Source: Nitrospirales bacterium (GTDB taxonomy: Bacteria > Nitrospirota > Nitrospiria > Nitrospirales > UBA8639). Taken from it: a DNA stretch of 64,000 bases. Below are positions 38,834 through 61,337 of this stretch, one piece after another. Location of the stretch: the NCBI GenBank assembly GCA_965223295.1, contig CBDCWC010000002.1:1344001-1408000 (forward strand), given 5' to 3'. The notes below the pieces were generated by a model. It was not told where the DNA came from. It worked only from the letters and a program-made list of their open reading frames with translations, and made no database searches. The position numbers were made by a program, and so were the translations under genes. The first letter of the stretch is position 1. Each line of letters starts with the position of its first letter.

Positions 38834-38882
38834 AGGCTCTCAATTCCCCTATCGCAATCGACATTTTTTAAGAGAACGTAAT

Positions 38883-39278: not shown

Positions 39279-39346
39279 TCCACCTCCTTTATGGGTCCTC
39301 ACCCAATAGCGCGCGATATCCAAGAGTGGTGTTTATGTCTCCGAAA

Positions 39347-41191: not shown

Positions 41192-41536
41192 CCTTTTATT
41201 GAAAATACAGAACTATCAATAAATACCTTTCTCATCTGAGACCATTTGACATAGAAATCGTGGTTGCACTAAAACTGAACAAGAGAAAAGTCGGATTTTC
41301 TGGGAATTGTGTTCAACGCTTGAATACGCTTTTACCAATTTTCGTGCGTTATTTTCGAAGACGGCCTCTAAGGCCAAGAGAGGACTGAGGCAAGTACCCG
41401 AAGAAAATACGAAGGCAAGGTATTATGATTGTTGTAACCTACTTATTGCTCCTTCCTGTCGATATCGGAACCTCACTACTCAGAAACTTGTAGGACTTAG
41501 ATTTATCAAATGTTGCTATTATCTAAATAACCAAAC

Positions 41537-45079: not shown

Positions 45080-46222
45080 CTATTGTGGTGAGGCGAGTAA
45101 TTCTCGATAAATCTTGGCAAGACGTTTTACAGAGTATGAAATATCATAGCGTTGACAGACTTCCCAACCCTTTTCACCCATACGGTTAACTAACAATGGA
45201 TTCTGAAGTAAGAAAGAAACTTTCTCAACCAATGTAGCCACGTTCTTAGGAGGAACCACGAAACCTGTTTCTCCTTCAACTATAACTTCCGGCATCATCC
45301 CTGTAGGAGTTCCGATCACTGGCTTACGCATATTCATTGCTTCAAATAAAGTCAAAGGCCCCCCCTCACCATGGATCGATGGAAGCACAACAATATCAGA
45401 GAACGCCAGCAATACAGGCACGTCTTCAGAGAAACCAGTAAAAATAACACGGTCTCCAAGCTTTAACTTTTGCGCTTCAGTCTGTAGTTTAGAAGAGTCA
45501 GGCCCATCACCAACAATGAGAAAGCGTGCTAGAGGGTATTGCTTCACAAGTTCGGCTGCGGCCCGAAGAAAATAGATTTGTCCCTTCATCTCCGCAAGAC
45601 GACCAACAGTGGACACAATGGTTTCTTTGCTTGAAATATCTAGTTCCCTACGTTTAGCCACAACCAGCTTTTCATCAGGAGGAGCAAATTCTGAAAGAGG
45701 AAGGCCATAAAAGAATGTCTCCATTATTGCTGGATTGACTTTTCTACACCGGGACATGAAATCTTCCACCGGCTTCGATATTGCAATGGCTTTAGTAGCC
45801 AAAGGAGACAAAATGGTATCCGCTATAGTTTGGTAGAACGGTTGATTTATAAGAACCGCATGCTCATGTACAATATTGGGTATCCCAGTTATCAAACTTG
45901 CAATACGTCCAAAATTTGCGGCTCCATACCCATGAAGATGCAGGATTTGAGGTTTAACTTCCCGGATTACTCTCAAGAGATGAGGAAGAGTCATAGGAGA
46001 AAATTTCCCTTTGTCTAAGTACAACACAGAAATACCTTCTCTTTCCAAAAACTTCCCTCCAGCTTGACGAGATCGAAGGCTACACACCACAAAATCAAAC
46101 TCCGATTTGTCAAAACGTGGAATCCACCATTTCAGAGCTTGGGTGATTCCGTGTATACTTGCACCAGAAATATCCAACTTATCAATAAGGTGTAGAACAC
46201 GTATGGGGTTGGGACTATTCAT
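45080..46222 (-). CDS. GT4 glycosyltransferase
   Basis: VGRLAEMKG, IVGDGP, EGGPLTLFEAM, ETGFVVPP. Confidence 0.9.
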   Translation of the reverse strand: MNSPNPIRVLHLIDKLDISGASIHGITQALKWWIPRFDKSEFDFVVCSLRSRQAGGKFLEREGISVLYLDKGKFSPMTLPHLLRVIREVKPQILHLHGYGAANFGRIASLITGIPNIVHEHAVLINQPFYQTIADTILSPLATKAIAISKPVEDFMSRCRKVNPAIMETFFYGLPLSEFAPPDEKLVVAKRRELDISSKETIVSTVGRLAEMKGQIYFLRAAAELVKQYPLARFLIVGDGPDSSKLQTEAQKLKLGDRVIFTGFSEDVPVLLAFSDIVVLPSIHGEGGPLTLFEAMNMRKPVIGTPTGMMPEVIVEGETGFVVPPKNVATLVEKVSFLLQNPLLVNRMGEKGWEVCQRYDISYSVKRLAKIYRELLASPQ

Positions 46223-46469
46223 GTATCAACTCCCTTATCGGGCATCAATTTTTATGGTAAGGACAGGATTTCCCAACGATACAATGACAACCAAAGTAGT
46301 TCGGGCTCGAAATTTTCAATTATTCCCAAACACATCTAGCTTGGCTGGCACAGTCAAAGTCCTTTGACAGAGATTAGAAATACTAATAGCTTACCTGATA
46401 AGACAATGAGAGCATTATTCCCTTCAACCCACTCCTGTACCACAAAGTAAAGAATCTATAAAAATTCTT

Positions 46470-47459
46470 CTATCGGAGGTGGCCATTTTCTTTGTACCAA
46501 ATTGCGGTGCGATGAATGCCTTCTTTTAGAGAAATTTTTGGCTGAAAGTTCAGTTCTCTCTTGGCCTTTGAAATATCGAACGCTCTATTCTTTTTGAAGA
46601 AATCTATGCGTCGCCGATACAACGGTGGCTCGATTCCAAACGGTTTACAGAGAGCTTCACAAGCAAAACCTGCTGCATACACAGGCCACATGGGAATCCG
46701 CCACCCTGGTCGGGGAACCCCTAATTCATCAGCAATCATGGTCACTAACTGATTGAGAGGCACATATTCTTCTCCAGCTAAAATATATGTTTGACCAATC
46801 GCTTGCTCTGACCTGCTGCTCAGAATGATTCCATTCACGAGATCATCGATATACGTAAAATGGTAGTTCACCGTACCTGGGCCGACCATAATAAATCGGC
46901 GTTTATGAATAGCTCGAAAAAGCTTCAAGAACCGCAGATCCCCAGGGCCATAAATTCCAGCTGGCCGAACAATCGTAACGGCTAGCTTTGCTTCATTCAT
47001 ATAACGCCGAGCAATTTCCTCTCCCTGCAACTTGGTCTCTTGGTAAATATCACCAGGACCAAACGGAGCTTCTTCATTGGCTGGTGACTTGGCAACATGC
47101 CCATGAACTCCTACTGTACTGCAGTGAACAAATCTGGAAACACCGCTTTCTATGGATGCCTTCAGCAAATGCTCAACGCACTCGGCATTCACCTTTCTAA
47201 AGACCTCTGGCCCAACGCCTTGCTGCCGAAATAACGCTGCAATATGAAAGACAACATCAACCTTGCCTACCGCTTCTTGAATACTGTGAGGATCACTGAG
47301 ATCACCCCAGACAAGGTCGACGTTGAGTCTCCTCAATTCTTCAACTTGACTCCCTTTTCGTACGAGAGTCCGAACATCATAACCCTGCTTGACGAGCTCC
47401 GCGCATAAATGACCGCCCGTAAAACCGGTTCCTCCGGTTACCAGAGCCTTCACTCGCAC
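46470..47459 (-). CDS. NAD-dependent epimerase/dehydratase (extended SDR)
   Basis: VTGGTGFTG, HCSTVGVHG, YQETK, RPAGIYGPGD. Confidence 0.9.
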   Translation of the reverse strand: MRVKALVTGGTGFTGGHLCAELVKQGYDVRTLVRKGSQVEELRRLNVDLVWGDLSDPHSIQEAVGKVDVVFHIAALFRQQGVGPEVFRKVNAECVEHLLKASIESGVSRFVHCSTVGVHGHVAKSPANEEAPFGPGDIYQETKLQGEEIARRYMNEAKLAVTIVRPAGIYGPGDLRFLKLFRAIHKRRFIMVGPGTVNYHFTYIDDLVNGIILSSRSEQAIGQTYILAGEEYVPLNQLVTMIADELGVPRPGWRIPMWPVYAAGFACEALCKPFGIEPPLYRRRIDFFKKNRAFDISKAKRELNFQPKISLKEGIHRTAIWYKENGHLR

Positions 47460-47496
47460 TTTACCTTCTGATACTTCAAATCAATGATATTCATCT

Positions 47497-48519
47497 TCAA
47501 GTCTGATTGGAGCCCTCAGGTAACTCCGCCCTCCAACTCTTTGGCATATTTTTCAGTATCTCAACTCCTTCAAAGGTCTTACCTCGCTTGGCCCCAACTT
47601 TTTTCGCCCATAAAGCCATTCGGCCAATACCGTCCTCTAAAGAAACGACAGGTGCACCGCCAAAAATATCGTGTAACTTCTTATGACTTGAAAAGGCATG
47701 CAAGACTTCGTTCCGTGCATCCAAGTAGGTGATCTCTTCCTTGCTACCCATAGCCTTAGCTACAATCGTTGCCAGTTCGTTGACGGTGTGGGGAGTTTCA
47801 GCTCCAATATTAAACACCGTATTCAGTGCACCCGAATTAAAAGGAGAGCTGGCAATAATCGGCGCAACATCCTGTATATACGAAAATGCACGACTTTGCT
47901 GCCCATCTCCAAATATGGTCATAGGTTGTCCTTGCATCAGTTGATTCATAAAAATTCCCACAACATTTCGGTACCGATCTCCGATATTTTGTCGTTCTCC
48001 ATAGACATTATGCGGGCGAAACACCACGTAATTGAGACCAAACATTTCATGACTGGCCCGCAAATCTTGCTCAACAGCTAACTTGGCAATGCCATAGGGA
48101 TCTTCAGGAACCGGGACCATCTCTTCAGTCATGGGCAATTGATTCTTTCCATACACCGCAATTGAGGAGGTAAAGACAAAACACTTCACTGAATGATTCA
48201 CAGATGCGTTAATCAGGTTGATACTTCCAATCACGTTATTCTCGTAATTGAATCTCTTAATGAAATGACTTAGACCCTCTGCTGCATAGGCAGCAAGATG
48301 ATACACATAGGAAAACTTATGTTCCGTGAAAAGCTTGTGTATGAGTTGAGTATCGACCACGCTCCCTTCAACGAACTCCGCTTTTTCAGGAACATTCTCG
48401 GGAAATCCTCCACTCAAATCGTCTAACACCACAACATCTAGCCCTCGAGCAATGACTTCATCAGCCACATGGGAGCCAATAAATCCTGCACCGCCAGTTA
48501 TGAGTACTTTCTCGTTCAT
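47497..48519 (-). CDS. NAD-dependent nucleotide-sugar epimerase/dehydratase
   Basis: ITGGAGFIGSH, HLAAYAAEGLS, TSSIAVYG, YGIAK, RPHNVYG. Confidence 0.9.
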   Translation of the reverse strand: MNEKVLITGGAGFIGSHVADEVIARGLDVVVLDDLSGGFPENVPEKAEFVEGSVVDTQLIHKLFTEHKFSYVYHLAAYAAEGLSHFIKRFNYENNVIGSINLINASVNHSVKCFVFTSSIAVYGKNQLPMTEEMVPVPEDPYGIAKLAVEQDLRASHEMFGLNYVVFRPHNVYGERQNIGDRYRNVVGIFMNQLMQGQPMTIFGDGQQSRAFSYIQDVAPIIASSPFNSGALNTVFNIGAETPHTVNELATIVAKAMGSKEEITYLDARNEVLHAFSSHKKLHDIFGGAPVVSLEDGIGRMALWAKKVGAKRGKTFEGVEILKNMPKSWRAELPEGSNQT

Positions 48520-48524
48520 CGTAG

Positions 48525-49727
48525 TTACCCTCCCTTGACAACCAAGTCCTGATCACCAACATACCGTTCATAGACCTCTTGCAACCGATGCCCTACCGCG
48601 TCCCATGAATACTCAGAAGACGCTTTCTGGTAACTATCCTCTCCAAGCTTCCGGGCACGCGCCGTATCGGTCAAGAGTTCTACAAGCCTCTGCGCAAAGG
48701 CATGTACCTCTCCATTCTCGGCATACACTCCCAAATCGCCTAATATCTCCCGATTCACCGAATTATCAAAGACAATGCTTGGAAGCCCCATGGCCATATA
48801 GGCAAACAACTTCAAATTTGCTTCCGAAGAAGAAGTCTTGGGCGATACCGCAACATCTCCCAAAGAAAGATATCGAGGCGCATCTGCGTAGGCAATTTTT
48901 CCCGTAAAAATCACGTGCTCTCCAAGTCCCATGGAAATAGCCTTTTCTCGATATGCCTGCTCAGGAAAACCAAGAATTAAAAATTTGGCCGTGTGGACTT
49001 TTTTTAAAACGATCGCCGCGGCCTCCAAGAGCAAATCAATCCCTTGATAGGATGCGAGTACGCCAATGAACACAGCGACTTTGTCTTTAACGCCGATGCC
49101 AAGCTCAGTTTTAAGCTCTAAGTCTTCCGACCGGCGGTAAAATACGTCCAGATCCACACCGTCACCAATGGTCGACACATCAGTCATTCCAAATTTTTCA
49201 GTGACCAGTTGTGTCAGACGTGAAGCACTTGTAATGAGATGACGCGGCATCTTGTTGACATTCTTTTCTATCCACTGAACAAGTCCAACAAGCCACGGCC
49301 AACGAGGAATAAACTCATGATCCAAAATTTCCTCTGTCAGACTTCCCTGCAAATCAGCCACCATTGGAATCCCGAACAACATGCTCGCAAGCTTCCCAAT
49401 GACAATCCCTTCGTGTAGATGAGCATGAATGATATGCGGGCGAAACGCCCCACAACTACGCAACACAATCCAGAGCAACAACACATCAATATAGAACTTG
49501 TGAATCGAAGGACCGGCAGACAACTTCTGATACCAAGGAATATTCATCGTTCGAACGGTATCGATCCCTTCGATGTCTCTTCCCAAATGATAAGTACAGA
49601 CTTGAACGGTCCATCCTTGGCTTTTCAAGGCCTTGATTTCACCAAGAATTCGAACATGGCATCCCCGATCTGCAAAAAATGGAGTCGGTGCGACTACAAG
49701 GATACGCTTGAGCGCTGGCTTGTGCAT
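48525..49727 (-). CDS. GT4 glycosyltransferase
   Basis: APTPFFADRGCHVRI, HAHLHEG, YQGIDLL, KLFAYMAMG. Confidence 0.88.
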   Translation of the reverse strand: MHKPALKRILVVAPTPFFADRGCHVRILGEIKALKSQGWTVQVCTYHLGRDIEGIDTVRTMNIPWYQKLSAGPSIHKFYIDVLLLWIVLRSCGAFRPHIIHAHLHEGIVIGKLASMLFGIPMVADLQGSLTEEILDHEFIPRWPWLVGLVQWIEKNVNKMPRHLITSASRLTQLVTEKFGMTDVSTIGDGVDLDVFYRRSEDLELKTELGIGVKDKVAVFIGVLASYQGIDLLLEAAAIVLKKVHTAKFLILGFPEQAYREKAISMGLGEHVIFTGKIAYADAPRYLSLGDVAVSPKTSSSEANLKLFAYMAMGLPSIVFDNSVNREILGDLGVYAENGEVHAFAQRLVELLTDTARARKLGEDSYQKASSEYSWDAVGHRLQEVYERYVGDQDLVVKGG

Positions 49728-51412
49728 TCACTCACTCCTTTGCGTCGGTACTCAGCATTCGTCTCATGCAGTTCATGTTGAATTCTCGCTTCATTCCAAT
49801 TCATTTCTCTAGCCATAAGCATGGCACACCTCCGTAGACATTCATCTCCGGGATGCCCCATGGCGCCAAGTTCCGTTCGCCGAAACACAATATCACTCAA
49901 AGTCTGAGCCATTTCTCTCCTTACACCATGAATAATTTCGGCTTTGGTCACGATCATATGGGGCTCAACCTGATCTCCTAGAGCAAGATCTTCTTCGCTA
50001 TATTGAAATATGTCACGAAAATTCGAACCGTAAGTATCCACAACATGTTGGACCACCTCTTGAGACATTCTCTTGGGCTTTTGGCTTATTGCGTCCCGTA
50101 AGAGTTCTTCGTGGGAAAGAAAGTTCCCTCCGTAAACCGGGACGGTCGCAGTTGTACATGGCACTGATTTTTTCCCAAGCTTGCGAAACACTAAATCAAT
50201 GGTCTTTTCCGCTACTCCTCGGGCAGTTGTAAACTTTACCCCGCTCACTGAAAGTATTCCTCGAACACCATCAATTTTTTCATGATCGTGAATCACGGGA
50301 TGCTTGGCCAATTGAACATCATTGTTCACCCCAGAAGTAACCGCTCGTGGAAGAAGACCCCAGTTGACTAAATGTACATCGTTTCGAGCAATCACAGCTT
50401 CGGGTAAACTAGCATTAATTTCTTTTAGCTGGGACTCAATTTCTTCTTCTGTCACACAAGCGTCATCCGGGCTTCCCTCATATCGTGTTTGAAAAGTTCC
50501 AACTAAACATCGATTTTTCCAGGGAGTCATGAAAAAATACCGGCATCCTTTATTCACAACAGCATCAACATCTACGTAGGTATATCGGCTAGGAACACCA
50601 AGAGCTATAGTATCCACAATGGGGTTTGTGACGAGGACGATAGCTTTGAGCAAGGGGAGTTGAGTTCGCGGGAAGCCCTGACGAGTCTTCATAGGCCACA
50701 TCTGATCAAGCCATGGCCCACTACAATTGACGACAAATTTTGCTCGAATTTCCAGTGAGTTATGGGCTAATACATCCTCAGCTTCCACTCCGACCGCCGA
50801 GCCATGGGTCACGAGAAGCGTAGACACCCTGACATAGTTCAGTACATCTGCGCCGTGATCGTGAGCAGACAGCAACATCGACAGTAAAAGACGTTCAGAG
50901 TTATGCACTTGGGCATCAAAATAATAGGCTCCACCGGTCAATTCATGTTGATTAATCATTCCACAATGCTCAAGGCATTTCTCATTCGATAGCACACGGC
51001 TTGCAGGAAACTGTAGCGATTCCGGCAAGTCGCGGTTCCGATCAAACGCAATGAAATCATTTGCCATCAGTGCAATGCGCAGCAAAGACTTCTTCGCCCC
51101 AATATTCTGGTAGGTTGGGATCAAAAACGGCATAGGCTTCACAAGGTGAGGAGCCATACGAACGAGTGCACGTCTCTCATAAATTGACTGCCTCATTCGA
51201 ATCAAATCGCCATGCTGTAAATACCGCAATCCTCCATGAATGATCTTATGGCTATTACCAGAAGTTGCATGTCCAAAATCACCTTTTTCCAAAAGAACAA
51301 CTTTCAATCCGCGTAAGGCCGCATCACGCGCAACACAGGCTCCATAAATCCCTCCTCCAATAACCAACACATCATACTCTTGCCTTGTGATGTCTTCGGG
51401 TACTCGATTCAT
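49694..51412 (-). CDS. glpD: FAD-dependent glycerol-3-phosphate dehydrogenase/oxidase-like protein
   Basis: DVLVIGGGIYG, DAALRGL, IHGGLRYL, APHLV, GVKFTTAR, RRTELG; the substrate may differ from G3P. Confidence 0.8.
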   Translation of the reverse strand: MNRVPEDITRQEYDVLVIGGGIYGACVARDAALRGLKVVLLEKGDFGHATSGNSHKIIHGGLRYLQHGDLIRMRQSIYERRALVRMAPHLVKPMPFLIPTYQNIGAKKSLLRIALMANDFIAFDRNRDLPESLQFPASRVLSNEKCLEHCGMINQHELTGGAYYFDAQVHNSERLLLSMLLSAHDHGADVLNYVRVSTLLVTHGSAVGVEAEDVLAHNSLEIRAKFVVNCSGPWLDQMWPMKTRQGFPRTQLPLLKAIVLVTNPIVDTIALGVPSRYTYVDVDAVVNKGCRYFFMTPWKNRCLVGTFQTRYEGSPDDACVTEEEIESQLKEINASLPEAVIARNDVHLVNWGLLPRAVTSGVNNDVQLAKHPVIHDHEKIDGVRGILSVSGVKFTTARGVAEKTIDLVFRKLGKKSVPCTTATVPVYGGNFLSHEELLRDAISQKPKRMSQEVVQHVVDTYGSNFRDIFQYSEEDLALGDQVEPHMIVTKAEIIHGVRREMAQTLSDIVFRRTELGAMGHPGDECLRRCAMLMAREMNWNEARIQHELHETNAEYRRKGVSECTSQRSSVSL

Positions 51413-51532: not shown

Positions 51533-52210
51533 TTAGGACGATGTGGCCTGTTGAACCACCATAGCCACGGCAATATTAGTCGTATGAGAGATACTTACTG
51601 CGAAAGGAATAGGGGTAGGAATGCCATCTTGATAATGCCGGAGGATCGGCGACGCCTCAGCCTTGGAAACTAACTCAATGTTTTTCATTTCTTCATGAAG
51701 ATAGGATGGCTGGCATTTCTTCAGAGCTTCTTTGGCACACCAGCGAGCAGCAAAATGCATGCGTGGATGGTCTTGGAGCAAGCAATAGGCAATCTCAACT
51801 GATGAAAATGAATTGGTATAAAAAGAATCTTTCCAATAGTCATCAACCTCAGGAAAGCCTTCAACCATCTCAACATCTATTCCGCAACTCATTCCGGTTC
51901 CCGCTCCCATGCCATTGAACATAACGGGAACAGCTGTTTCAGAGTTTGATTTTTGAGAGACAGCTGCAACGGACGCGCCTGACTCGTCGTGAGAAGCCAC
52001 TCCTAACACTGCCTTATGCAACTCCCCATATGTTTTGGCTGAATACACCCCACGGCATGTGACTCCAAGACGATGCCGAATTGCCGCATCAAGCTTGGCC
52101 CGAGCCAAAGACCCTTGCATACGCCTCGTTGACAAGAGAAAATCTTCGTGAACTTTGGTCACGTCGGCTTCAAACAGTTCAGCAACGATTTGCTTAAGCT
52201 TGGCTTCCAT
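51533..52210 (-). CDS. Fusion of an ACP-like carrier domain and an AcpS-type 4'-phosphopantetheinyl transferase
   Basis: N-terminal LKQIVAELF...GSLARAKL...LGV helix pattern; C-terminal GIDVE, FAARWCAKEA, VSISHT. Confidence 0.8.
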   Translation of the reverse strand: MEAKLKQIVAELFEADVTKVHEDFLLSTRRMQGSLARAKLDAAIRHRLGVTCRGVYSAKTYGELHKAVLGVASHDESGASVAAVSQKSNSETAVPVMFNGMGAGTGMSCGIDVEMVEGFPEVDDYWKDSFYTNSFSSVEIAYCLLQDHPRMHFAARWCAKEALKKCQPSYLHEEMKNIELVSKAEASPILRHYQDGIPTPIPFAVSISHTTNIAVAMVVQQATSS

Positions 52211-52218
52211 CTTTACGT

Positions 52219-53601
52219 CTACCACCCCCGCATGCAGACACTACATAGGTATCCGCGCTTTCCGTCTGGCTTCACCGTCTGCACCATAAAGTGATCCCAG
52301 TGCTCGAAGTGATCCCACTCCTGAATTTTTGAAAGCGGGGTCAGACAACGTGAACAACTAAGTTTGTCGACTTCTTCCACACCTTCATCCTTCTTTGGAC
52401 CATCAACAAGTGCGGCTTCATAAGCCTGCAGATGCTCACCTAATTCACCCAAAAACTTAGCAGCTTGACGTCCCTCTGAAACCTGATGATCAAACGCTAG
52501 AATCAGATTAAAGACCCCTTCACGGCTACCAGGCGGGAAAAATTCTCCGCCGACACCAAGAATCGCAGACTGCCCTTGATTGAGAAGCGGATGAAACGCA
52601 AAGACCCCCTCACCCGACAGATCAGTTACGGTACAGGTGCCGCCTTGGAGATCTTCACTGGAAAGGCCATTCCCCAGATATGACACCATTAGTTCCTGCA
52701 TTTCACGTGTGATCTGAGCAATGCTCTTGCTGTCAGCAGCATGGATCACCGGAACCTTCAGTCCAAAATCCCCATCAATGGCAAACCCGACATTGATTTC
52801 TTCATAGAAATTGACATGTTCATCTTGATAGAACGCATTGAACCATGGATAGTGTCGTAACAAACGAGCCATTTCAAAGATAATCACGGCAGTAGTCGTA
52901 GCTTCAACATTCATATTCTGATCAACCGCCGCACGGAGACCCTTCGTTGGGATGGCGACCGTAATCACGCTCGGCAAAGCATTCTGATATCCAGAAGATA
53001 GATATCCGATTTCCGTTCGTTTACTTTTTGGCAACTTTTCTGTTTGAAATGGAACCCCTGTCGCAGGAACCGGCGAAACGTTTGATTTCAACTGCTCTAC
53101 CTTGACAGGACGAGGAGAAGAAGGCTGTGCAGGACTCTTTTCACCTAATTCCACAAGAATATCTTCAGTTCTCACGAGACCTCGATCTGCGAATCGGTCT
53201 GGTGAAAGACCACGCTCCTCTAACAAGGCCTGAGCTTTCTTCGTAAAGTGTGACGAAGACTGTTCCCTGGGCTGAGAAACCCTGGGCTCTTGTCCATTTT
53301 TCATCGTATTCGACAAAGGAGTCTTTGCTAGTCCACCGTCATCTGGTAAAGCTGCAGAGTCGTCACTTCGGATGCTGCACAGCATTGCTCCGACATTAAT
53401 ATCAGTACCCGGCTCAATAGAATATTCCAAAACTCCTGTGGCCGGAGCCTCAATTTCCATGACGGCTTTACTCGTTTCAATCTCAGCAATCATCTGTCCT
53501 TGTATCACCTTCTCTCCAGTGGGAACAGACCAAGACAACACCGTCACGGACTCGTCGTTCACGTTATCTTGTGGAATGATGACAGGAATACTATTTTTCA
53601 T
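52219..53601 (-). CDS. Dihydrolipoamide acyltransferase (E2)-like protein with C-terminal Cys4 extension
   Basis: Lipoyl motif IETSKA, GLKVPVI, DLQGGT, LAFDHQVSEG; tail CSRC...CSVC. Confidence 0.85.
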   Translation of the reverse strand: MKNSIPVIIPQDNVNDESVTVLSWSVPTGEKVIQGQMIAEIETSKAVMEIEAPATGVLEYSIEPGTDINVGAMLCSIRSDDSAALPDDGGLAKTPLSNTMKNGQEPRVSQPREQSSSHFTKKAQALLEERGLSPDRFADRGLVRTEDILVELGEKSPAQPSSPRPVKVEQLKSNVSPVPATGVPFQTEKLPKSKRTEIGYLSSGYQNALPSVITVAIPTKGLRAAVDQNMNVEATTTAVIIFEMARLLRHYPWFNAFYQDEHVNFYEEINVGFAIDGDFGLKVPVIHAADSKSIAQITREMQELMVSYLGNGLSSEDLQGGTCTVTDLSGEGVFAFHPLLNQGQSAILGVGGEFFPPGSREGVFNLILAFDHQVSEGRQAAKFLGELGEHLQAYEAALVDGPKKDEGVEEVDKLSCSRCLTPLSKIQEWDHFEHWDHFMVQTVKPDGKRGYLCSVCMRGW

Positions 53602-55559
53602 ACATCCATCATTTCTAAGGCCATTTTGACGACATGCTTTTCACCAGGCAGACATTGTTTTTCAAGCGGGCCACATGAGGGAATCGGATGGTTCGGGGAA
53701 GCGACTCGACGAACCTGCCGAAGCACGCCGGGCATCAGCTCTGAGATTTGCGCCAACACCTCAGAGCCAAGTGCTGCAAAATTTATCCCTTCCTCAACGA
53801 TCAAAAGCTTTTGAGTCTTTTGAAGCGATTCCAGTACAGCCCATGGATGAAAGGGATACACCTGAATGGGACAGATCACTTCGCAAAAAATTTCATACTC
53901 GTCACATAACTCTTGTACGGCACGTTCGACGTCCACCAGCATACCGCCATAACATAATATCGTGAGATCAGGATGACCTAATGGACGTATACGTGTTGCC
54001 GGGAATTGCTCGTTGGTATGCTCCAGCACAAATCCGTCAGGAACTTGATCAGACACACGAAGTCCATAGAGCAATTTATTTTCAATAAGGATCGTCGGAC
54101 GATCAATGGAAGAAAACACTTCATCATACACAAGCCCAGCATCACAGCGAGAATGGAGGGCCAACATAGTTGTACCTGGAAGGCCCATAAAATGCTTTTC
54201 AATACTTTGGCTGTGCGTCGGGCCATAACCACGCTTGCCTCCCATCGGCGTGCGCACCACCAACGGTACGCGGACTTGCTCGTTATACATGTAACGAAAC
54301 TTGGAGGCGTGATTGAGCAGTTGATCAAACGCAAGCCCCAAAAAATCACCAAACATTATTTCGCACACCGGCAACAAACCGTTCAGCGCCAGCCCATTGC
54401 CCAACCCAACCAGTGCCGATTCGCTAATAGGTGTATTCCGCACACGGCCTGGAAACTCTTGGCTCAAATTCTTGGTTACTTTAAAGGCACCACCATAGGG
54501 CCCCTCAATATCTTCTCCAATCAAGATGATTTTATCGTTCCGCTTCATGTTACGCTGAAACGAAAGATGAATCATATTCACCATTCGTTCGGATGACGAA
54601 ATCTTCGTGGTCATCCATTCCGTCGTGGTCGCCTCTCTTTTCTCCACCGCAACCACACTCATTTCAGAATAGGGAGCTTCATCTGAACGAGAGACCGCAG
54701 CATCAATGTTTGCTTGAATTTTCCGATCAATGGCCTCAACTTGCTGTCTATCAGCCTGTCTGCGAAAAATTTCAATCGGATCTTTGGCCCAGTACTCATT
54801 CACTTCTTCGGGGTCACGGTCATCGTCTCCCTTGGAATGTGCCATGAGCCGATATGTGTCAATTTGCAAGAACAAGGGGCGGCATTCGCTTCGTACATAC
54901 TCAATACAGTCTGCCGTCGTCACCAGGAGTTCTTCAGGTTCCCAAGTGTTTGAATGAGCAGTCTTTATGCCAAAAGCATCACCACGCGCCAGAATACTTC
55001 CAGCTAAAGTCTGTCTCTGTGAGGTACTCTGAGCATAGTAGTTGTTTTCAAGTACCACTAGTAAGGGCAATTCCCAACGTGAAACAAGATTGAGAGATTC
55101 GTAGAGTGCGCCTTCTCCCAATGTGCCATCGCCAATAAAGACCACCGCAATGAATCCCGTCTTTAAAACCTTTTGAGCCATCGCAAGACCTGCAGCAACT
55201 GGAACAATGCCGCCTTGAATTCCATTGCTATAAAACCCCTGAGAACAGATGTGCTGACTGCCTCCCCTTCCGCCGCACATGCCATTTTGCTTGCCCATAA
55301 TCTCTCCGATGAGACCTTCAACATCGCCTGTTTTCGCTAAATAATGCCCATGGCAGCGATGATTACTAAACACAAGATCACCATCTCTTAACGATTCGGC
55401 AACGGCCACCCCTGTCCATTCTTGCCCGATACAAGTATGAACAGTTCCAAACAACCGTCCTTCTTTAAACAATTCAAGGAGCCTCTGCTCAACACTTCGA
55501 ATCAGCATGGCCTTTGTATACAGCTGGATGTCTAATGTCGAGGATTTTTCTGTAATCAT
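53598..55559 (-). CDS. Fused E1 alpha/beta TPP-dependent 2-oxoacid dehydrogenase/transketolase-like protein
   Basis: HTCIGQE, SNHRCHGH, GDG...ENN TPP motif, YRLMAHSKGDD, IGEDI, NTPISE, GPTHSQ. Confidence 0.92.
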   Translation of the reverse strand: MITEKSSTLDIQLYTKAMLIRSVEQRLLELFKEGRLFGTVHTCIGQEWTGVAVAESLRDGDLVFSNHRCHGHYLAKTGDVEGLIGEIMGKQNGMCGGRGGSQHICSQGFYSNGIQGGIVPVAAGLAMAQKVLKTGFIAVVFIGDGTLGEGALYESLNLVSRWELPLLVVLENNYYAQSTSQRQTLAGSILARGDAFGIKTAHSNTWEPEELLVTTADCIEYVRSECRPLFLQIDTYRLMAHSKGDDDRDPEEVNEYWAKDPIEIFRRQADRQQVEAIDRKIQANIDAAVSRSDEAPYSEMSVVAVEKREATTTEWMTTKISSSERMVNMIHLSFQRNMKRNDKIILIGEDIEGPYGGAFKVTKNLSQEFPGRVRNTPISESALVGLGNGLALNGLLPVCEIMFGDFLGLAFDQLLNHASKFRYMYNEQVRVPLVVRTPMGGKRGYGPTHSQSIEKHFMGLPGTTMLALHSRCDAGLVYDEVFSSIDRPTILIENKLLYGLRVSDQVPDGFVLEHTNEQFPATRIRPLGHPDLTILCYGGMLVDVERAVQELCDEYEIFCEVICPIQVYPFHPWAVLESLQKTQKLLIVEEGINFAALGSEVLAQISELMPGVLRQVRRVASPNHPIPSCGPLEKQCLPGEKHVVKMALEMMDV

Positions 55560-55603
55560 AATGTATCGACTCTGTTGAACGAGACAGATGCTGTTGACAC
55601 CAT

Positions 55604-56374
55604 CTACAGTAATGACTCGCCGCGCGGCAGAAGGAGAAGTTTCCGATTAGGAATGGCAATCGCAAAATCAGGAATGTCCTCAGTCACCACTGTTCCTGAA
55701 CCAATCACACAACCATTTCCAATGTTCACACCATCTTGCACAATCACTCCCGAACCGATCCACACATCATTTCCAATAACCACAGGGCCATTAGAATACA
55801 ACCCTTGCTCCATCATCGGAATCTCTCTATCAGCCGTATGATATCGTCCGCCACCAATATAACATTGACCTGCCATCATCACTGATTTCCCCAATGAAAT
55901 GCCCCCAACCGAACTCAACTGGCATTGGCTGCCAATTGAACAATAATCTCCGATAGAGATGGGACCAGCTTTAGCCTGTATGATTGTACTGCGAGCAATC
56001 AACACATCATTGCCGATTGTTATGCCTTGGGATTCGGCGCCCTTTGCATCGACTAAACAATGATCATCAATCGCCACACGATCCCCAAGCTGGATTTTTC
56101 CGGGATGACGAAGGGAAATATTTTTTCCCCATACCACTCCAGATCCAACTTTTTTGCACAGCAAAGGAAAGAATTGTTTTCGCAGGAGTAGTCCCAGGGC
56201 TCCTGGGAAAGAGCCAAGACACATCGTCAAGAATTCAAACTTAGCCAACGCTCCAACACTCGAAGAACCCACAAAAAAATTCTGATATTTTTTCAATGCG
56301 GACGTATCAGTTTCGGCCAAACTTTTCGCAAAGGGCTGCTTCGAGATTGTCTGTCCAGACTTGGTCGAAATCAC
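55604..56374 (-). CDS. Hexapeptide-repeat (LbH) O/N-acyltransferase
   Basis: Repeated I-G-x-x-V hexapeptides (IGNDVLI, IGDYCSIG, IGNDVWIG, IGNGCVIG, VVTEDIP). Confidence 0.9.
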   Translation of the reverse strand: MISTKSGQTISKQPFAKSLAETDTSALKKYQNFFVGSSSVGALAKFEFLTMCLGSFPGALGLLLRKQFFPLLCKKVGSGVVWGKNISLRHPGKIQLGDRVAIDDHCLVDAKGAESQGITIGNDVLIARSTIIQAKAGPISIGDYCSIGSQCQLSSVGGISLGKSVMMAGQCYIGGGRYHTADREIPMMEQGLYSNGPVVIGNDVWIGSGVIVQDGVNIGNGCVIGSGTVVTEDIPDFAIAIPNRKLLLLPRGESLL

Positions 56375-56483
56375 GCTCGCTCTTTCTCCTAGTATCTCCA
56401 GATTTTTAAAATTTCTTCATGAACTAGTTGTTGGCCTTTTCAATCTGCCAATCACCCTGTATGAAAGATACATCCCCATAATA

Positions 56484-56510
56484 GTATCGGCCCTGACTCT
56501 GGACTGATTA
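56484..56510 (-). promoter_or_regulatory. Sigma-28-like promoter
   Basis: Minus strand TAAT-N15-GCCGATAC, about 110 bp upstream of the acyltransferase start. Confidence 0.45.
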
Positions 56511-56774
56511 AGAGAAAACAGCAATTTTTCGTCACTTTACTCAATCCAAATCATCAGTCCCTAGGAAAAAGGCTTTCCCAGCCGAAAAAGACGTAATCTT
56601 TTTATTTTAAAGATTCCCATTAAAAATGTAACCCTACTCCTGAAACAAATTCGCCCTGATATCAAGTCAACATTGCCTAAGAGTGTCCCACCCTCTGCTC
56701 TCTTACGGAACTGATACTAAGAGTTCGCTCATCAATGAAAGATTACGCCCATGATATCCCAGAACTATCTTTCA

Positions 56775-56965
56775 GAGACTGTTGAATAATGATGATATCA
56801 ACGGCCACATTTCATGTCTGAGGGGTAACATGTCAGAGACCTCAGGTTTGTTCAAAAAAGTCCGTTCAGCAAGGCCACAGCTATTTTTGCGCGCGGAGCA
56901 GACTGGCAGTATGTGAGCACGGGAAAATAGCGAGAACGCCGCTGACGGCTTTTTTCAACAAACCC
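56775..56965. mobile_element. 191-bp MITE-like element with 5-bp flanking duplication
   Basis: Ends GAGACTGTTGAATAA / TTTTTTCAACAAACCC; internal TIR-like copy GGTTTGTTCAAAAAAGTCCGTTCAGC from 56845; TTTCA at 56770-56774 and 56966-56970; second copy at 1-103. Confidence 0.85.
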
Positions 56966-57029
56966 TTTCAGAAAAAATGAGAACCCCTTCATAGCAAAAG
57001 GCAACTCCTTCTGAACACTATACGGAGGG

Positions 57030-57854
57030 TCATTCCGGAAGCAAGGAATGGATAGGCCCGAAGGAAAAATCTTGGAGGAGTCGAGTCAGACGGCCCCGCA
57101 CTTTGTCTAAGTTGAGGTAGTGCCGAAACTGAGAAAGAAAAGACCCACGCATACGTGGTTGTCCAGGGTCCAGCTCCCAGGGATGCAAATACATGATAAG
57201 GGGTTGGCCTTGCTGTTCAACTCGACGCAACAGTTTCTTGAGAAGAGGATAAGGAAATAATCGAAAATACCCGCCGCCCGCAATGGGCAAAGTGAATCCA
57301 GCCACATGACATGTTGATGGCGGAACTTCCACCAAAGGGCCGGAATCTGTTTTCAACGTATGAATAGCGGGGTTCGCTCCGGGGATACCATAGTAATCAT
57401 GCACAATGGGGACAATACTTGAGTCATACCGATAACCTTCTTCAACTAAAATAGGCAAAGCCCATTCGGTTTCCTTGGTCACAGAAAATGTCGGCGCGCG
57501 ATACCCCAGAACTGGTGTTCCGCCAATGTCTTCTAAAAGTTTTTTGGCGCGCTTCACATCCTCTCGAAAAGCTTGTGGACTTTGTCCCGTGATTAATTCA
57601 TGGCCATAACCGTGAGAGGCGAGTTCATGGCCCGCTTCCACGATACGTTTCACCAACGCTTTGTTGCGTTCCGCCACCCAGCCAAGCACAAACATAGTGG
57701 CCTTGATTCCTCGTTGGTCCAATACTTCGAGAATCACTTCAGTGTTTTGTACAACTCGGCTATCTTGGCTTTCCCAATTGCGGCGACGTGCTGCGCTGTC
57801 AAACGCCGCCACTTGGAAATGCTCTTCAATGTCAAAACTTATCCCATGCAACAT
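57030..57854 (-). CDS. XrtA-system polysaccharide deacetylase
   Basis: SFDIEEHFQV, ATMFVLGWVAER, HELASHGYGH, GYRAPTFS, GGGYFRL, YLHPWELDPGQPR. Confidence 0.92.
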   Translation of the reverse strand: MLHGISFDIEEHFQVAAFDSAARRRNWESQDSRVVQNTEVILEVLDQRGIKATMFVLGWVAERNKALVKRIVEAGHELASHGYGHELITGQSPQAFREDVKRAKKLLEDIGGTPVLGYRAPTFSVTKETEWALPILVEEGYRYDSSIVPIVHDYYGIPGANPAIHTLKTDSGPLVEVPPSTCHVAGFTLPIAGGGYFRLFPYPLLKKLLRRVEQQGQPLIMYLHPWELDPGQPRMRGSFLSQFRHYLNLDKVRGRLTRLLQDFSFGPIHSLLPE

Positions 57855-57888: not shown

Positions 57889-58947
57889 CTATCTTGCTCC
57901 GCTACCTTGCAAGACGACTCGAATGGTGCGAAATAAGATTTTGAGATCTAACCATAAGGACAAATTTTTCACATAATAGAGGTCATACTGAAGTTTGACA
58001 TGTGAGTCTTCTAATGACGAGGCATATTGAAAACATGTTTGCGCCCATCCTGTAATCCCTGGACGGACAGTATGACGTAAATCATAATAGGGAATCTGCG
58101 TTCGAAGATCTTGCACAAAATGAGGACGCTCAGGCCTGGGACCCACGAGACTCATTTCACCCTTGACCACATTAATGAATTGTGGCAGTTCATCTAACCG
58201 AAGTTTGCGTAACCAAAATCCTACCCTCGTGACTCGTGGGTCACCTAGCGCAGCCCATTTAACCCCATCAGCTTCAGCATCATGCCGCATGGACCGAAAT
58301 TTCAGAAGAACATAAGGGTACCCATGAAGACCCACCCGTGTTTGACGATACAGAATAGGGCCAGGGGAATCCAATTTTATACAAAGGGCAATTACGCTCA
58401 TCAACGGCCCTAAAAAAGCCAAACCACAACAAGCCCCAATCATATCTCCAGTCCTTTTTAAGGCCATCACAACTGGTTTTCGCTTGAAGCCCGAGGAGAA
58501 GATTAAAAAACTGGGTTTTAGCTCATCAATAGATAAACGACCACATTCCTCTTCATACATTCGATGCCCATCTAAGACATCGATGCCCATAGATTTACTA
58601 TCCAACAACGCATCCAGAGGCAGCCCCCCACGCCGATCCTCTACGCAAACTGCAATGGTCTGAACTTGATGAAATTCAGAAAGTTCAAAGAGCTGATCAA
58701 CTGTGCCTAATACCTTGGGATTGACGATACTGGTACCGATTCGAGATTGATCGCTGGACAGAAAACCAACCACTTCGTAACGATGAGAGCGGTCATAGAC
58801 CAGTACTCTGGCTAAATCATGAGCCAAATTACCATCACCCAAGATTAAGACGCGTTTTTTCAGCCCGAACCATTTGTAGGGTGAATATAAGAGAAGGTCT
58901 GATTTCGGCATGACCGTGGCCGAAGAATCGAGGTAGGTCTCGTTCAT
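57889..58947 (-). CDS. Priming polyprenyl-phosphate glycosylphosphotransferase (WcaJ/XrtA-type), lacking N-terminal TM bundle
   Basis: KFRSM, DPRVTRVG, RLDELPQ, MSLVGPRPERP, RPGITGWAQ, YDLYY; ATGA overlap with the wzc stop supports start 58947. Confidence 0.92.
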   Translation of the reverse strand: MNETYLDSSATVMPKSDLLLYSPYKWFGLKKRVLILGDGNLAHDLARVLVYDRSHRYEVVGFLSSDQSRIGTSIVNPKVLGTVDQLFELSEFHQVQTIAVCVEDRRGGLPLDALLDSKSMGIDVLDGHRMYEEECGRLSIDELKPSFLIFSSGFKRKPVVMALKRTGDMIGACCGLAFLGPLMSVIALCIKLDSPGPILYRQTRVGLHGYPYVLLKFRSMRHDAEADGVKWAALGDPRVTRVGFWLRKLRLDELPQFINVVKGEMSLVGPRPERPHFVQDLRTQIPYYDLRHTVRPGITGWAQTCFQYASSLEDSHVKLQYDLYYVKNLSLWLDLKILFRTIRVVLQGSGAR

Positions 58948-61337
58948 TCTGAATGTGTAAGAGCGTACGGCACAGAATACCCATGGCGGACATAATAGGG
59001 TACGCCCTCGGACCAAGCATCAGTAAGAATCAGCCTGATCGGGCTCGAGCCATGTATCATTTCTGTAGCCTTTTGTACAACATCTTTGGGAGTAATGCCA
59101 GACCGGACAATCATTAACACAATGTCTGCCAGACCACTTAACACATTAATATCCGCAAGGGGGAGAATAGGCGGACCATCTAAGATAATAAAACGATAGC
59201 GAGACCGGACCGCTTCAATGAGAGAGGAGAGGTGCTGTAACTTTGACAATGAAACGGGATAGGCATCCATATCTCCTACGGACATACACCATAGTGGCAA
59301 ATCCTCAATCTTTTGAAAACAGGATTCTAAGGGAGCCTGTCCAGCAAGGTAATCTGCGACCCCTGGGTAATGACGTAGCACAAACACATTATGCAAATTA
59401 GGGCGCTTGTAATCACAATCAATCACAAGAGTTGGCTCATCAAGGTCACGAGCGAGCGTATAGGCCAAATTTGATGCCGTCGAGGTCTTGCCTTCTCCCT
59501 TCAACGCACTGGACAAAAGCACAACATTCCCCGTGGGCCGATCCCCCAACAAATCCAACCGCGTGGCCGCAACACGAAATTGCTCTGCAACGACAGACTG
59601 AGGTCGCCACTTTGAGACCAAATTCAGTTGCGTGGGAAAGGCTTGAGGCTTGGAAGCTCCACTGTAGAACAGAGACTTACTTTTCGTTAATCCTTCATCA
59701 TCAAAATAATGATTCGATCCATTCCCATTTTGCTTCAATGTATCCGCCACTGGAAAATCTGAGGTTCCTGGCAACATTTGCATCGTCTTGCCATACGCCA
59801 TTTGAAAACTAGGAATTGTGGCGAGCATCGGCAACCCAAGAGACACTTCAACATCTTCCGAGCGCCGAAATGTTGGCGATAACAGCTCCAGGAGAAACGC
59901 TAAACCAAACCCTAAACCTGCACCGCCCGCCAATCCTCCTAACAGGATTAATTTTCGACCCAATCCCTCCGGTTTTCTTGGCAAATTCGCTGGATCCAAA
60001 ATACGGAACCTCTCGCCCTTTTGGCGGTTATCCAAGTTTTCTGACATCCTGGCATTAATCCGCTTTTTATGAAGAAGTTGGTAATTTCCCTGCATGTTTC
60101 CATAATCACGCTCTAGAACAAGAAGTTCTTGTTCACGTGTCGGTGTACGTTCGATGCGTTGTGATAAATTTTGCATCTCTTGAGTAATTCTTTTTGATTG
60201 CGACCGGAGCTTAATGACTTGAGCCTTTAATTCATTTTTTGAATTTTTTAGATCAGATAAATATGGATCAAAAACAGGGCCCTCTGAAGCTTCAAGACCA
60301 GATGGGATATCTATGTCAATAACCTCCTCGTCATCCCCAACAGCCTCAGAACGTTGGGCAAGTTCGGCTTCTAGATTTTTAATTTGCGTTTTTAGTGAAA
60401 CAACGTCAGGATAGGCATCTGTGTATTCACCAGACATTTTCGTGAGTTCCCGCTTCAGCTCTTCAATCCGCAAACTCACGGGATCAGATGCCACACTAGA
60501 GACAGGACTGGGGAACGATTCATCACCAAACTCTCTAAGCGTTCCCGCAATGGACTCATAGTCATGAATAGATTTCTGAAGAAGCTCCATTCGCACATTC
60601 AATCCATTAATCGACTCTTGTATCTGGATTTTTTCTTCCTGCAATCGGTCTAGAGTCCGAAGATTGGTTTCTAATTGCCCAGGCAACTCACCGGCATACT
60701 TCAACTTATATTCACTCAACAATTTTTCTTTTTCATCCAATGCCTCTTTGGCTGCCGCTAATTCTTGTTCTAAAAAATTAGTCGCCCCTTCAATAAATTG
60801 TTCACGTATTTTGATATTACCTTCAATATATTGAGAGGCTAATTTTGACGTGACTTTCATCGCCAACATGGGATCTTCATGACTAAAGGAAATTGTAAAG
60901 GCCTCAAGTTGCCGCGCACCTTTTGTCGTGATCTTCACATTTTTCCGCAACCCTTCAATAACGGATTCATACCCTTGAGTCTTAATCGTTTCTGGAAACA
61001 ACTGAAATTCATCAATGACTTTTTGGAGATTGGTCCGGCTTAACACTTGTTGCGTAATTGTCGATACCCGTTCTGCAGCACTCCCTTTAATCACAGACGG
61101 AACGTAATTTTCATGAATTTTTTGTTGTTCAACTAAAATGACGGTACTTGACCGGTACACATCCTTTTTCATCCAAGCCAGAACGCCGCCAACAGCAATG
61201 CCAAGAATGGTGAGAATGATAATCAGCCATTTTCGGCGAATAATGAGGTCGAGAAAATCTTTAATATATCGTTGGATCAGAACTGACTGATCCTGTTCCG
61301 CTTGTCCGCCATTTGAGAGAAAAGTTGATTCCGCCAT
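58944..61337 (-). CDS. wzc: Polysaccharide co-polymerase/tyrosine autokinase
   Basis: Two TMs flanking a coiled coil, FRILDPA, EQFR, Walker A GEGKT, IDCD, ILDGPP, Tyr-containing C-terminus. Confidence 0.92.
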   Translation of the reverse strand: MAESTFLSNGGQAEQDQSVLIQRYIKDFLDLIIRRKWLIIILTILGIAVGGVLAWMKKDVYRSSTVILVEQQKIHENYVPSVIKGSAAERVSTITQQVLSRTNLQKVIDEFQLFPETIKTQGYESVIEGLRKNVKITTKGARQLEAFTISFSHEDPMLAMKVTSKLASQYIEGNIKIREQFIEGATNFLEQELAAAKEALDEKEKLLSEYKLKYAGELPGQLETNLRTLDRLQEEKIQIQESINGLNVRMELLQKSIHDYESIAGTLREFGDESFPSPVSSVASDPVSLRIEELKRELTKMSGEYTDAYPDVVSLKTQIKNLEAELAQRSEAVGDDEEVIDIDIPSGLEASEGPVFDPYLSDLKNSKNELKAQVIKLRSQSKRITQEMQNLSQRIERTPTREQELLVLERDYGNMQGNYQLLHKKRINARMSENLDNRQKGERFRILDPANLPRKPEGLGRKLILLGGLAGGAGLGFGLAFLLELLSPTFRRSEDVEVSLGLPMLATIPSFQMAYGKTMQMLPGTSDFPVADTLKQNGNGSNHYFDDEGLTKSKSLFYSGASKPQAFPTQLNLVSKWRPQSVVAEQFRVAATRLDLLGDRPTGNVVLLSSALKGEGKTSTASNLAYTLARDLDEPTLVIDCDYKRPNLHNVFVLRHYPGVADYLAGQAPLESCFQKIEDLPLWCMSVGDMDAYPVSLSKLQHLSSLIEAVRSRYRFIILDGPPILPLADINVLSGLADIVLMIVRSGITPKDVVQKATEMIHGSSPIRLILTDAWSEGVPYYVRHGYSVPYALTHSE

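Follow-up and report, generated by a model that had tools for sequence, protein, structure and literature searches.

Little is known of the way in which glycolyl, glyceroyl and other rare acyl groups arrive on the surface glycans of bacteria. A 2017 paper, in its text on bacterial nonulosonic acids, presents N-glycolyl as not described on these sugars and the genes for rare N-acyl groups as unknown, "a major challenge" (PMC5378307). A locus of a Nitrospirales bacterium raises the question of whether some bacteria load such groups onto a carrier of their own. We analysed a stretch of 64,000 nt (C2:1344001-1408000, hereafter the window) of the complete 3.78 Mb genome, whose assignment to Nitrospirales agrees with the named homologues of the window proteins. 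Where a sequence-only reading of the same DNA had placed them, four minus-strand genes inside an XrtA/PEP-CTERM exopolysaccharide (EPS) locus encode a left-handed beta-helix (LbH) acyltransferase, a fused E1alpha-beta, a lipoylated E2 (lipoyl-E2) and a carrier protein fused to an AcpS-type phosphopantetheinyl transferase (PPTase; the fusion is called carrier::AcpS below, and its gene forms the cassette together with those of E1 and E2). We consider it probable that E1alpha-beta, lipoyl-E2 and carrier::AcpS form a self-contained acyl-carrier loader of the Qnc/Scl/Ren type, from which the LbH enzyme passes the acyl group, probably glycolyl, to the polysaccharide. What the analysis shows is the domain content, the intact motifs, the acyl carrier protein (ACP) fold with its invariant serine, the conservation of the cassette, its glycan context and the position of the E1 among its relatives.

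The E1 protein falls short of the equivalog threshold for the E1 of pyruvate dehydrogenase (PDH), with 223 bits against TIGR03182 for a cut-off of 394, and PDB sequence searches returned solely generic matches to PDH and branched-chain 2-oxoacid dehydrogenase (BCKDH). It retains the thiamine pyrophosphate (TPP) motif GDG-X26-NN, the beta-subunit motif GEDI and the loop histidine in TYR..AHS. In a tblastn search of 72,556 plasmids, which matched 746 records, the best alignment was to RenH, encoded in the renieramycin cluster of Candidatus Endohaliclona renieramycinifaciens; a single uninterrupted piece covers 98% of the query at 48.5% identity. RenH is likewise a fused E1alpha-beta and is followed by the lipoyl-E2 RenI. 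The next-best matches, at 41% identity, are from Streptomyces and Streptantibioticus; the annotated one shows the order ACP-E1alpha-E1beta-E2 and adjoins a condensation-domain protein and an MbtH gene. A Paenibacillus match is surrounded by ACP, thioesterase and thioester-reductase genes. Acetoin-type and catabolic E1s in this search reached at most 38% identity.

Phylogenies gave the same picture. In a careful IQ-TREE analysis of E1alpha (45 rows, omitting the long-branch sequences of L062, L067 and L082 and four duplicate loci), the cassette and secondary-metabolite E1s split from the PDH, aco-type and plasmid catabolic E1s with a support of 100/100; the cassettes together with RenH received 97/92, and the cassettes alone 66/53. 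The split came back in two quick trees, one of E1alpha with 48 rows and one of E1beta with 51, each time with an SH-like approximate likelihood ratio (SH-aLRT) of 100; the cassettes alone reached 98 in the beta tree. RenH stands next to, or within, the polysaccharide cassettes. QncN, QncL and QncM are not among the tree rows and are represented by proxies, namely RenH and the Streptomyces and Paenibacillus cassettes linked to an ACP or to non-ribosomal peptide synthetases (NRPS). Placed with these proxies, the window E1 belongs to the carrier-loading clade with RenH and the NRPS-linked E1s, and not to the PDH, BCKDH or Aco clades; the grouping with housekeeping complexes that the sequence-only reading had named as evidence against it is not seen.

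The E2 presents a lipoyl domain with its lysine in ETSKA and a catalytic domain with the motif FDHQVSEG. Among 31 cassette E2s, the lipoyl motif [E][TG]SK is kept in 29 and FDH in all 31. Every NCBIfam E2 equivalog is far below cut-off (best score 134 bits vs 722). The protein was placed by pairwise identities of the catalytic domain: identity to the window E2 is 41-86% for cassette members, 39% for RenI, 34% for a C. difficile E2 and 30-31% for Streptomyces E2s. Between the two domains lies a linker that resembles a subunit-binding domain by eye only, and the protein ends in a CxxC...CxxC tail of about 45 residues that is found in 24 of the 31 cassette E2s; Pfam, searched at E up to 10, gave nothing credible for either tail or linker.

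The three cassette genes are translationally coupled. Indeed, the E1/E2 junction is an ATGA in which the E2 ATG overlaps the E1 TGA, and the carrier gene starts either in overlap with the E2 stop or 12 nt past it. In the carrier::AcpS protein, Ser39 stands at the start of helix II, the phosphopantetheine site of carrier proteins, and is invariant in 21/21 and 24/24 aligned homologues. An AlphaFold2 (AF2) model built from 21 homologues (pLDDT 84) comprises helices at residues 4-17, 39-53, 58-61 and 66-74, a disordered linker and the PPTase. The carrier domain modelled alone (pLDDT 80) matched, among the Foldseek matches listed, ACPs in every case, including AcpM, AcpP and DltC (TM 0.64-0.79), with E-values that are weak (best 4e-3), as is to be expected of a domain of 80 residues. 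The second half of the protein scores 40.6 bits on Pfam ACPS for a cut-off of 25, and its CGIDVE and WCAKEALKK, which correspond to the AcpS motifs G-x-D-x-E and W/F-x-x-K-E-A, are invariant or nearly so in the 21 homologues. With the whole fusion as query, Foldseek matched the C-terminal half to AcpS structures, the best match being the cis-acting PPT domain of a fungal fatty acid synthase (FAS; E 1.5e-7, TM by target 0.76). In the models, the N-terminal half folds as an ACP, in line with the sequence-only reading, which had called it ACP-like, and the C-terminal half is an intact AcpS. A separate second AcpS is encoded elsewhere in the genome, so that the fused one is an extra copy. An additional C-terminal hydrophobic segment that resembles a membrane anchor occurs in 12 of the 21 homologues in the alignment, all 12 from outside Nitrospirales.

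Features of the cassette and its immediate surroundings (positions in the window)
Feature	Position	Strand	Evidence and parts
GlpD-like FAD oxidoreductase	49694..51412	-	DAO + DAO_C; 120 nt downstream of cassette
Carrier protein::AcpS fusion, 230 aa	51533..52225	-	Pfam ACPS 2.9e-10 in C-terminal half; ACP-fold domain ~51995-52225, Ser39 codon 52109-52111, disordered linker residues 78-107, AcpS-type PPTase ~51545-51898
Lipoyl-E2 acyltransferase, 460 aa	52219..53601	-	Pfam Biotin_lipoyl 8e-12, 2-oxoacid_dh 6.4e-36; lipoyl domain ~53368-53592, catalytic domain ~52405-52935, CxxC...CxxC tail 52222-52362
Fused E1alpha-beta, TPP-dependent, 653 aa, single chain	53598..55559	-	Pfam E1_dh 5.3e-51, Transket_pyr, Transketolase_C; alpha ~54657-55529, beta ~53610-54584
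LbH acyltransferase, WcaF/WbbJ-like, 256 aa	55604..56374	-	Pfam Hexapep 2.6e-12; hydrophobic N-terminal segment
XrtA-system polysaccharide deacetylase	57030..57854	-	TIGR03006 368 bits vs 276 cut-off; context
XrtA/PEP-CTERM priming polyprenyl glycosylphosphotransferase	57889..59016	-	TIGR03013 419.5 bits vs 393 cut-off

Is the cassette conserved as a unit, and with what does it travel? A word-indexed search with the fusion returned 317 homologues, mostly full-length, and an exhaustive HMMER search of 1.84 billion cluster representatives gave 458 at E<=1e-10, a number that falls to 110 when the threshold is set at E<=1e-30. Scanning one genome per species (185,579 species) yielded 44 loci, nine of which (L048-L056) match the PPTase half only, without E1/E2, and are not counted as cassettes. 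The 35 others have a full or near-full carrier::AcpS, with the E2 directly upstream in 34 (L015 is cut by a contig end) and the E1 upstream of the E2 in 33 (L015 and L017 being cut). They belong to Planctomycetota (15), Nitrospirota (7), Verrucomicrobiota (7), Elusimicrobiota (4), Actinomycetota (1) and Lentisphaerota (1), and the recurrence of the order E1-E2-carrier/PPTase over these six phyla puts it far beyond chance. The cassette is rare, with a patchy distribution: it was found in 3/301 sampled genomes of the window's phylum, the window's own genome included, and in 1/301 for the phylum to which L028 belongs, the one being the genome of L028 itself; in this second search at most eight candidates were scored per genome, which makes its absences soft.

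The neighbours of the 35 loci were surveyed within the fetched flanks by phmmer, with seeds assigned to families by Pfam. An LbH gene is present in 17 loci, on the same strand within 350 nt in 12 of them, and in three, all Opitutaceae, the gene just before E1 encodes a membrane-bound O-acyltransferase (MBOAT). Glycosyltransferases (GT) of families GT2 and GT4 were each found in nine loci and a priming transferase in four. A Pfam search of 121 crude neighbour ORFs taken from 21 non-redundant loci gave group-1 glycosyltransferases (7), GT2 (5), methyltransferases (4) and Hexapep (4), with two each for GDP-mannose dehydratase, carbamoyltransferase, nucleotidyl transferase, ABC transporter and lipoamide dehydrogenase (E3); these counts are lower bounds because the DNA is GC-rich and many of the ORFs called are false, running antisense to real genes. 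The link to polysaccharide loci that the sequence-only reading had expected of the homologues holds across phyla. In two Opitutaceae loci (L028, L034), the protein after the carrier gene was placed by ESM Atlas with SGNH/DUF1574 proteins, which is a lead only, and L020 has an AlgX-like SGNH acetyltransferase near the cassette; BLASTP between the Opitutaceae SGNH-like gene and the L020 AlgX-like gene found nothing. An E3 (Pyr_redox_2 + Pyr_redox_dim) lies directly downstream of the carrier gene in four of the 35 loci, which implies that the lipoyl cycle is oxidative.

In the window itself, the XrtA/PEP-CTERM locus runs on the minus strand from about 11.6 kb to 62.8 kb with nearly all its genes, and its identity is fixed by the presence of the TIGR03013 priming transferase. 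NCBIfam cut-offs were also passed by the XrtA-system deacetylase, the chain-length determinant, the stp1/stp2/stp3 glycosyltransferases and a FemAB-family protein, while two exporter-like genes and the amidotransferase (806.5 bits vs 816.9) are just below them. The deacetylase, the priming glycosyl-phosphotransferase, the chain-length determinant/kinase and the exporters lie upstream of the cassette, and the stp1/stp2/stp3 glycosyltransferases, the amidotransferase and FemAB-family genes downstream. A promoter/terminator scan of the window gave counts not above those of shuffled sequence, so that operon boundaries are drawn from gene spacing only. The gene next to the cassette is the sole LbH gene found in the window; its best NCBIfam matches are WcaF/WbbJ-type polysaccharide O-acetyltransferases, all below cut-off (WcaF 72 bits vs 192). 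No MBOAT was found in the window, and no NRPS domain, condensation, adenylation, ketosynthase or thioesterase gene among its proteins scanned with Pfam and NCBIfam.

Could the E1 and E2 simply be the housekeeping enzymes of this bacterium? Judged by their scores, they are not: for every NCBIfam equivalog the score is roughly half the cut-off or lower. The sequence-only reading would have been undermined had they been the only PDH of the genome, and on this point, too, the outcome is in its favour. The cassette is the sole E1/E2, but the genome has no PDH at all: there is no other PF00198 E2, no other full E1 and no housekeeping pyruvate or 2-oxoglutarate dehydrogenase E2. It has two POR_N-type 2-oxoacid:ferredoxin oxidoreductases, and the two facts together mean that the genome simply lacks PDH. 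Five other cassette genomes keep separate E1s and E2s. Their extra E1s score 265-315 bits on PF00676, vs 152-181 for their own intact cassette copies, and their extra E2s 214-291 bits on PF00198, vs 118-131; two of the extra E1s (L065, L066), even trimmed, exceed the TIGR03182 PDH E1alpha cut-off. By these scores, other cassette genomes keep ordinary PDH genes beside the cassette. Cofactor supply is provided for by LipA (above cut-off) and one BPL_LplA_LipB-family gene, of the lipoyl/biotin ligase family. The absence of an E3 from the window, already noticed in the sequence-only reading, was borne out: none of the genome's 11 TIGR01350 matches falls in C2:1344001-1408000, and phmmer with an E3 seed found no match in the six-frame translation of the window. 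The single lipoamide dehydrogenase above cut-off lies about 830 kb away (C2:513685-515049).

These observations can be arranged in a possible reaction scheme. The AcpS half would attach phosphopantetheine to Ser39 of its own carrier domain. The E1 would take a two-carbon unit from a central metabolite, most likely a ketose phosphate that yields dihydroxyethyl-TPP and less likely a 2-oxo acid, and would hand it oxidatively to the lipoyl arm of E2 by reductive acylation. The product, a thioester that is most likely glycolyl, would then be moved by the catalytic domain of E2 onto the thiol of the carrier and not to coenzyme A (CoA), and the dihydrolipoamide would be re-oxidised in trans by the single true lipoamide dehydrogenase of the genome. 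Finally, the adjacent WcaF-like LbH enzyme would take the acyl group from the acyl-S-carrier and place it on a sugar of the XrtA/PEP-CTERM exopolysaccharide, a role that in some other phyla would fall to an MBOAT with an SGNH-like protein. Glycolyl from a ketose phosphate is favoured because of the clade to which the E1 belongs; related E1/E2 systems are proposed to prime carriers from 2-oxo acids, so that clade membership does not fix the substrate (PMC5384830, as described there). The dedicated TPP/lipoate acyl-carrier machine on the Qnc/Nap model that the sequence-only reading had proposed is supported by the computational checks; we infer the substrate, the identity of the acyl group, its transfer from E2 to the carrier, and the donor and acceptor of the LbH enzyme.

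How far does the cassette resemble systems already described? The Qnc (quinocarcin), Nap (naphthyridinomycin), Scl (scleric acid) and Ren (renieramycin) systems, which supply a glycolyl unit, share with it an E1alpha, an E1beta, a lipoyl domain, an E2 domain and a dedicated carrier, and scl also has a dedicated PPTase; in the text cited, this domain set, including the E2 acyltransferase, is the one given for QncN/L/M and for SclQ1-4 with SclP (PMC6335953). RenH/RenI, whose E1 is fused and falls with the cassette E1s in one clade (100/100), are assigned by homology to a ketose-to-glycolyl two-component transketolase-ACP reaction in the description cited (PMC13249901). In the Qnc, Scl and Ren systems, as in the window, the E3 is usually supplied in trans. 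The differences lie in the polysaccharide context, which replaces the NRPS one with its delivery genes, in the carrier, which is fused to its own AcpS and is not detectably like the NRPS-linked ACP in sequence, in the E2 tail, which RenI and a Streptomyces homologue lack, and in the partners, which are LbH or MBOAT acyltransferases.

On the side of polymer decoration, DltA-DltC-DltB-DltD, which D-alanylates teichoic acids, and the MBOAT systems of AlgI/J/F/X type, which acylate extracytoplasmic polymers, likewise present an acyl thioester from a small dedicated carrier to an acyltransferase acting on a surface polymer; the MBOAT placed just before the three Opitutaceae cassettes, the SGNH/DUF1574-like proteins of L028 and L034 and the presence of DltC among the structural matches of the carrier domain all recall them. 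However, the loader of the cassette, which has no AMP-binding gene, is a TPP/lipoyl E1-E2 and not the adenylating enzyme of Dlt, and the window partner is a cytoplasmic-type LbH enzyme. PDH, the other 2-oxoacid dehydrogenases and AcoABC share the folds, the GDG...NN of TPP binding, the lipoyl lysine, the DH motif of E2 and the need for a lipoamide dehydrogenase, whereas the cassette differs from them by its separate clade, its roughly halved equivalog scores, its fused E1, its E2 tail, its obligatorily linked carrier gene, its rare and patchy distribution and an E3 that is adjacent in just the four loci mentioned. The pepteridine system of Photorhabdus, compared by description only, has an E1 and an E2 that are proposed to act from alpha-keto acids directly on the thiol of a carrier instead of CoA, with an E3 borrowed from the host; unlike in the cassette, its carrier is fused to the E2 and to an NRPS condensation domain (E1/E2-T-C), and the acceptor is a pterin (PMC5384830, in the part describing this system). 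An AcpS-type PPTase in the same polypeptide as the carrier that it primes is also found in the PPT domain of fungal type I FAS, there as part of a megasynthase and here in a stand-alone protein of 230 aa. We found no literature report of this cassette in polysaccharide or glycan loci, and the glycolyl-ACP reports found concern secondary metabolism. The chemistry and the enzyme clade are already known, and the context, the fusions and the partners are new.

Several points weigh against glycolyl loading for the polysaccharide. The top NCBIfam and PDB sequence matches of the E1 are PDH E1, and the nearest named families of the LbH enzyme use acetyl-CoA. For the N-terminal 80 residues of the fusion, Pfam at E up to 10 gave nothing credible and PP-binding did not match, and the carrier domain and the ACP of the Streptomyces cassette gave no alignment in BLASTP. 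No LbH or MBOAT gene was found in the fetched flanks of 15 of the 35 loci, and some loci (among them those of Elusimicrobiota, L043 and L045) have neighbours unrelated to glycans. Plainly unrelated neighbours in the survey are an HD phosphohydrolase, a lyase of fumarase type and an anthranilate synthase, among others. The suggested link to glycolyl comes by analogy from RenH/RenI, themselves assigned by homology, and from NRPS-linked cassettes of unknown product, and the function of the polysaccharide-linked cassettes is predicted from sequence, model and analogy.

Some of these points would be accommodated by an E1 that is a true 2-oxoacid decarboxylase acting on pyruvate, 2-oxobutyrate, hydroxypyruvate or a branched-chain substrate, the architecture and destination being unchanged and the carrier receiving acetyl, propionyl, hydroxypyruvate-derived glycolyl or a branched acyl group. 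The family and structure matches of the E1 to PDH E1alpha/beta speak for it, as do the partners of LbH, MBOAT and AlgX type, which classically transfer acetyl, and the pepteridine system, in which alpha-keto acids are described as priming the carrier through E1 and E2-T-C (PMC5384830). The clade that the E1 forms with RenH and the NRPS-linked Scl/Qnc-like cassettes, 100/100 apart from PDH and aco-type enzymes, argues against it, and acetyl would need no private carrier because acetyl-CoA is available; we regard this version as rather unlikely. It is more difficult to accept that the acyl-carrier serves a secreted metabolite, a lipid anchor or the modification of PEP-CTERM proteins and that the glycan genes are merely neighbours. 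All of its closest characterised relatives belong to secondary metabolism, L041 runs into a giant fusion of FAD, AMP-binding, PP-binding and PglD-LbH parts, and the 15 loci with neither LbH nor MBOAT nearby fit such a target. However, the window proteins scanned include no condensation, ketosynthase or thioesterase protein, the partners most often found next to the cassette are acyltransferases typical of glycan decoration, and GT genes are often nearby across phyla, which makes a target outside the polysaccharide improbable.

If the E1 and E2 were a common dehydrogenase for 2-oxoacids or acetoin, catabolic or housekeeping, whose product is acyl-CoA, and carrier::AcpS were functionally unrelated to them, this would agree with the cassette being the sole E1/E2 of the genome and with the true Lpd being elsewhere. 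Scores far below all equivalog cut-offs, a clade separate from the housekeeping and aco-type enzymes, a carrier gene that is translationally coupled and co-inherited in 35/35 loci, the two POR-type oxidoreductases and a presence in 3/301 genomes of the phylum, a poor fit to a core enzyme, render it very improbable. In AviB1/B2 and YerE, the TPP enzyme works on an NDP-keto-sugar by itself and has neither a lipoyl-E2 nor a carrier as partner. Two genes of sugar epimerase/dehydratase type from the short-chain dehydrogenase/reductase (SDR) family near the cassette could be taken as signs of a similar C2 branch added directly to an NDP-4-keto-sugar, an alternative that the sequence-only reading had also raised. 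For such direct branching, a lipoyl-E2 and a phosphopantetheinyl carrier would be superfluous, yet E2 and carrier, with active-site motifs intact, are present in every cassette locus with an uncut flank, and it is because they always accompany the E1 that this alternative is not favoured and appears scarcely credible.

If carrier loading for the polysaccharide is accepted, a broader scheme may be put forward, which we hold tentatively. Glycan decoration would be independent of CoA: a C2 unit would be cut from a sugar of the pentose phosphate pathway, and the resulting glycolyl-S-carrier would feed either a cytoplasmic LbH enzyme or an MBOAT/SGNH system outside, in the manner of Dlt with a dehydrogenase as loader, the NRPS glycolyl enzymes of antitumour tetrahydroisoquinolines, such as RenH, being offshoots of a glycan-modifying family. 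Glycolylated exopolysaccharides would then be expected in nitrite oxidisers, Planctomycetota, Verrucomicrobiota and Elusimicrobiota. The cassette offers a concrete and testable three-protein route for bypassing CoA and a candidate acyl donor for MBOAT-type acylation of polymers, and it would extend Qnc-type chemistry from rare antibiotic pathways to EPS loci of six phyla, including marine Nitrospirales, Planctomycetota and Verrucomicrobiota, which are environmentally important and hard to culture. The self-priming carrier::AcpS fusion and the zinc-ribbon-like tail of the E2 are compact parts that could serve glyco-engineering.

Other genes around the cassette deserve a mention. The XrtA deacetylase, two genes upstream, is presumably of a family general to XrtA loci; by analogy with the LpxC/LpxD pair, we speculate that it could expose an amine for re-acylation by the LbH enzyme. 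Between this gene and the LbH gene, 655 nt (56375-57029) hold no ORF of at least 60 aa, and promoter-like sites are no commoner there than by chance. In the relatives L013 and L014 the same position is filled by a GT4-like gene, so that a gene may have been lost at 56375-57029, or the stretch may be regulatory.

On the other side, the GlpD-like protein is the single GlpD-family match of the genome (249.8 bits vs 360 cut-off). Its gene accompanies the cassette in four Nitrospirales loci and in no other phylum, which makes a lineage-specific accessory role possible. A GT4 gene and the two SDR genes adjoin it (45080-49727), and this GlpD/GT4/SDR set is found with the cassette in the Nitrospirales loci L013, L016 and L019, on either side.

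Among the homologous loci, the cassette E1 is interrupted in three metagenome-assembled genomes (MAGs), by two in-frame TGA in L036 and by a split into two pieces in L020, with about 45% of the E1 matched in L027; assembly error or decay of the cassette could be the cause. Just half of the carrier::AcpS protein aligns in L036. Immediately downstream of the cassette, a Tepidisphaeraceae MAG encodes a 705-aa fusion of GT2 and exosortase (EpsH; L021:8411-10525). The fusion that directly follows the cassette in the Verrucomicrobiota MAG (L041:9438-13883) has 1482 aa and joins FAD/NAD-binding, AMP-binding, PP-binding and PglD_N/hexapeptide acyltransferase domains.

Elsewhere in the EPS locus, eight ORFs (547, 404, 459, 517, 824, 382, 414 and 464 aa) at 32528-43180 and 23397-29370 have no NCBIfam match at E<=1e-25. 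A MurF-like protein of the Mur-ligase family (26816-28129, minus strand, 203.7 bits vs 288.6 cut-off) and a FemAB-family XrtA-associated protein (11593-12621, minus strand) are also encoded there, and the two genes hint at a decoration of the polymer with amino acids or peptides.

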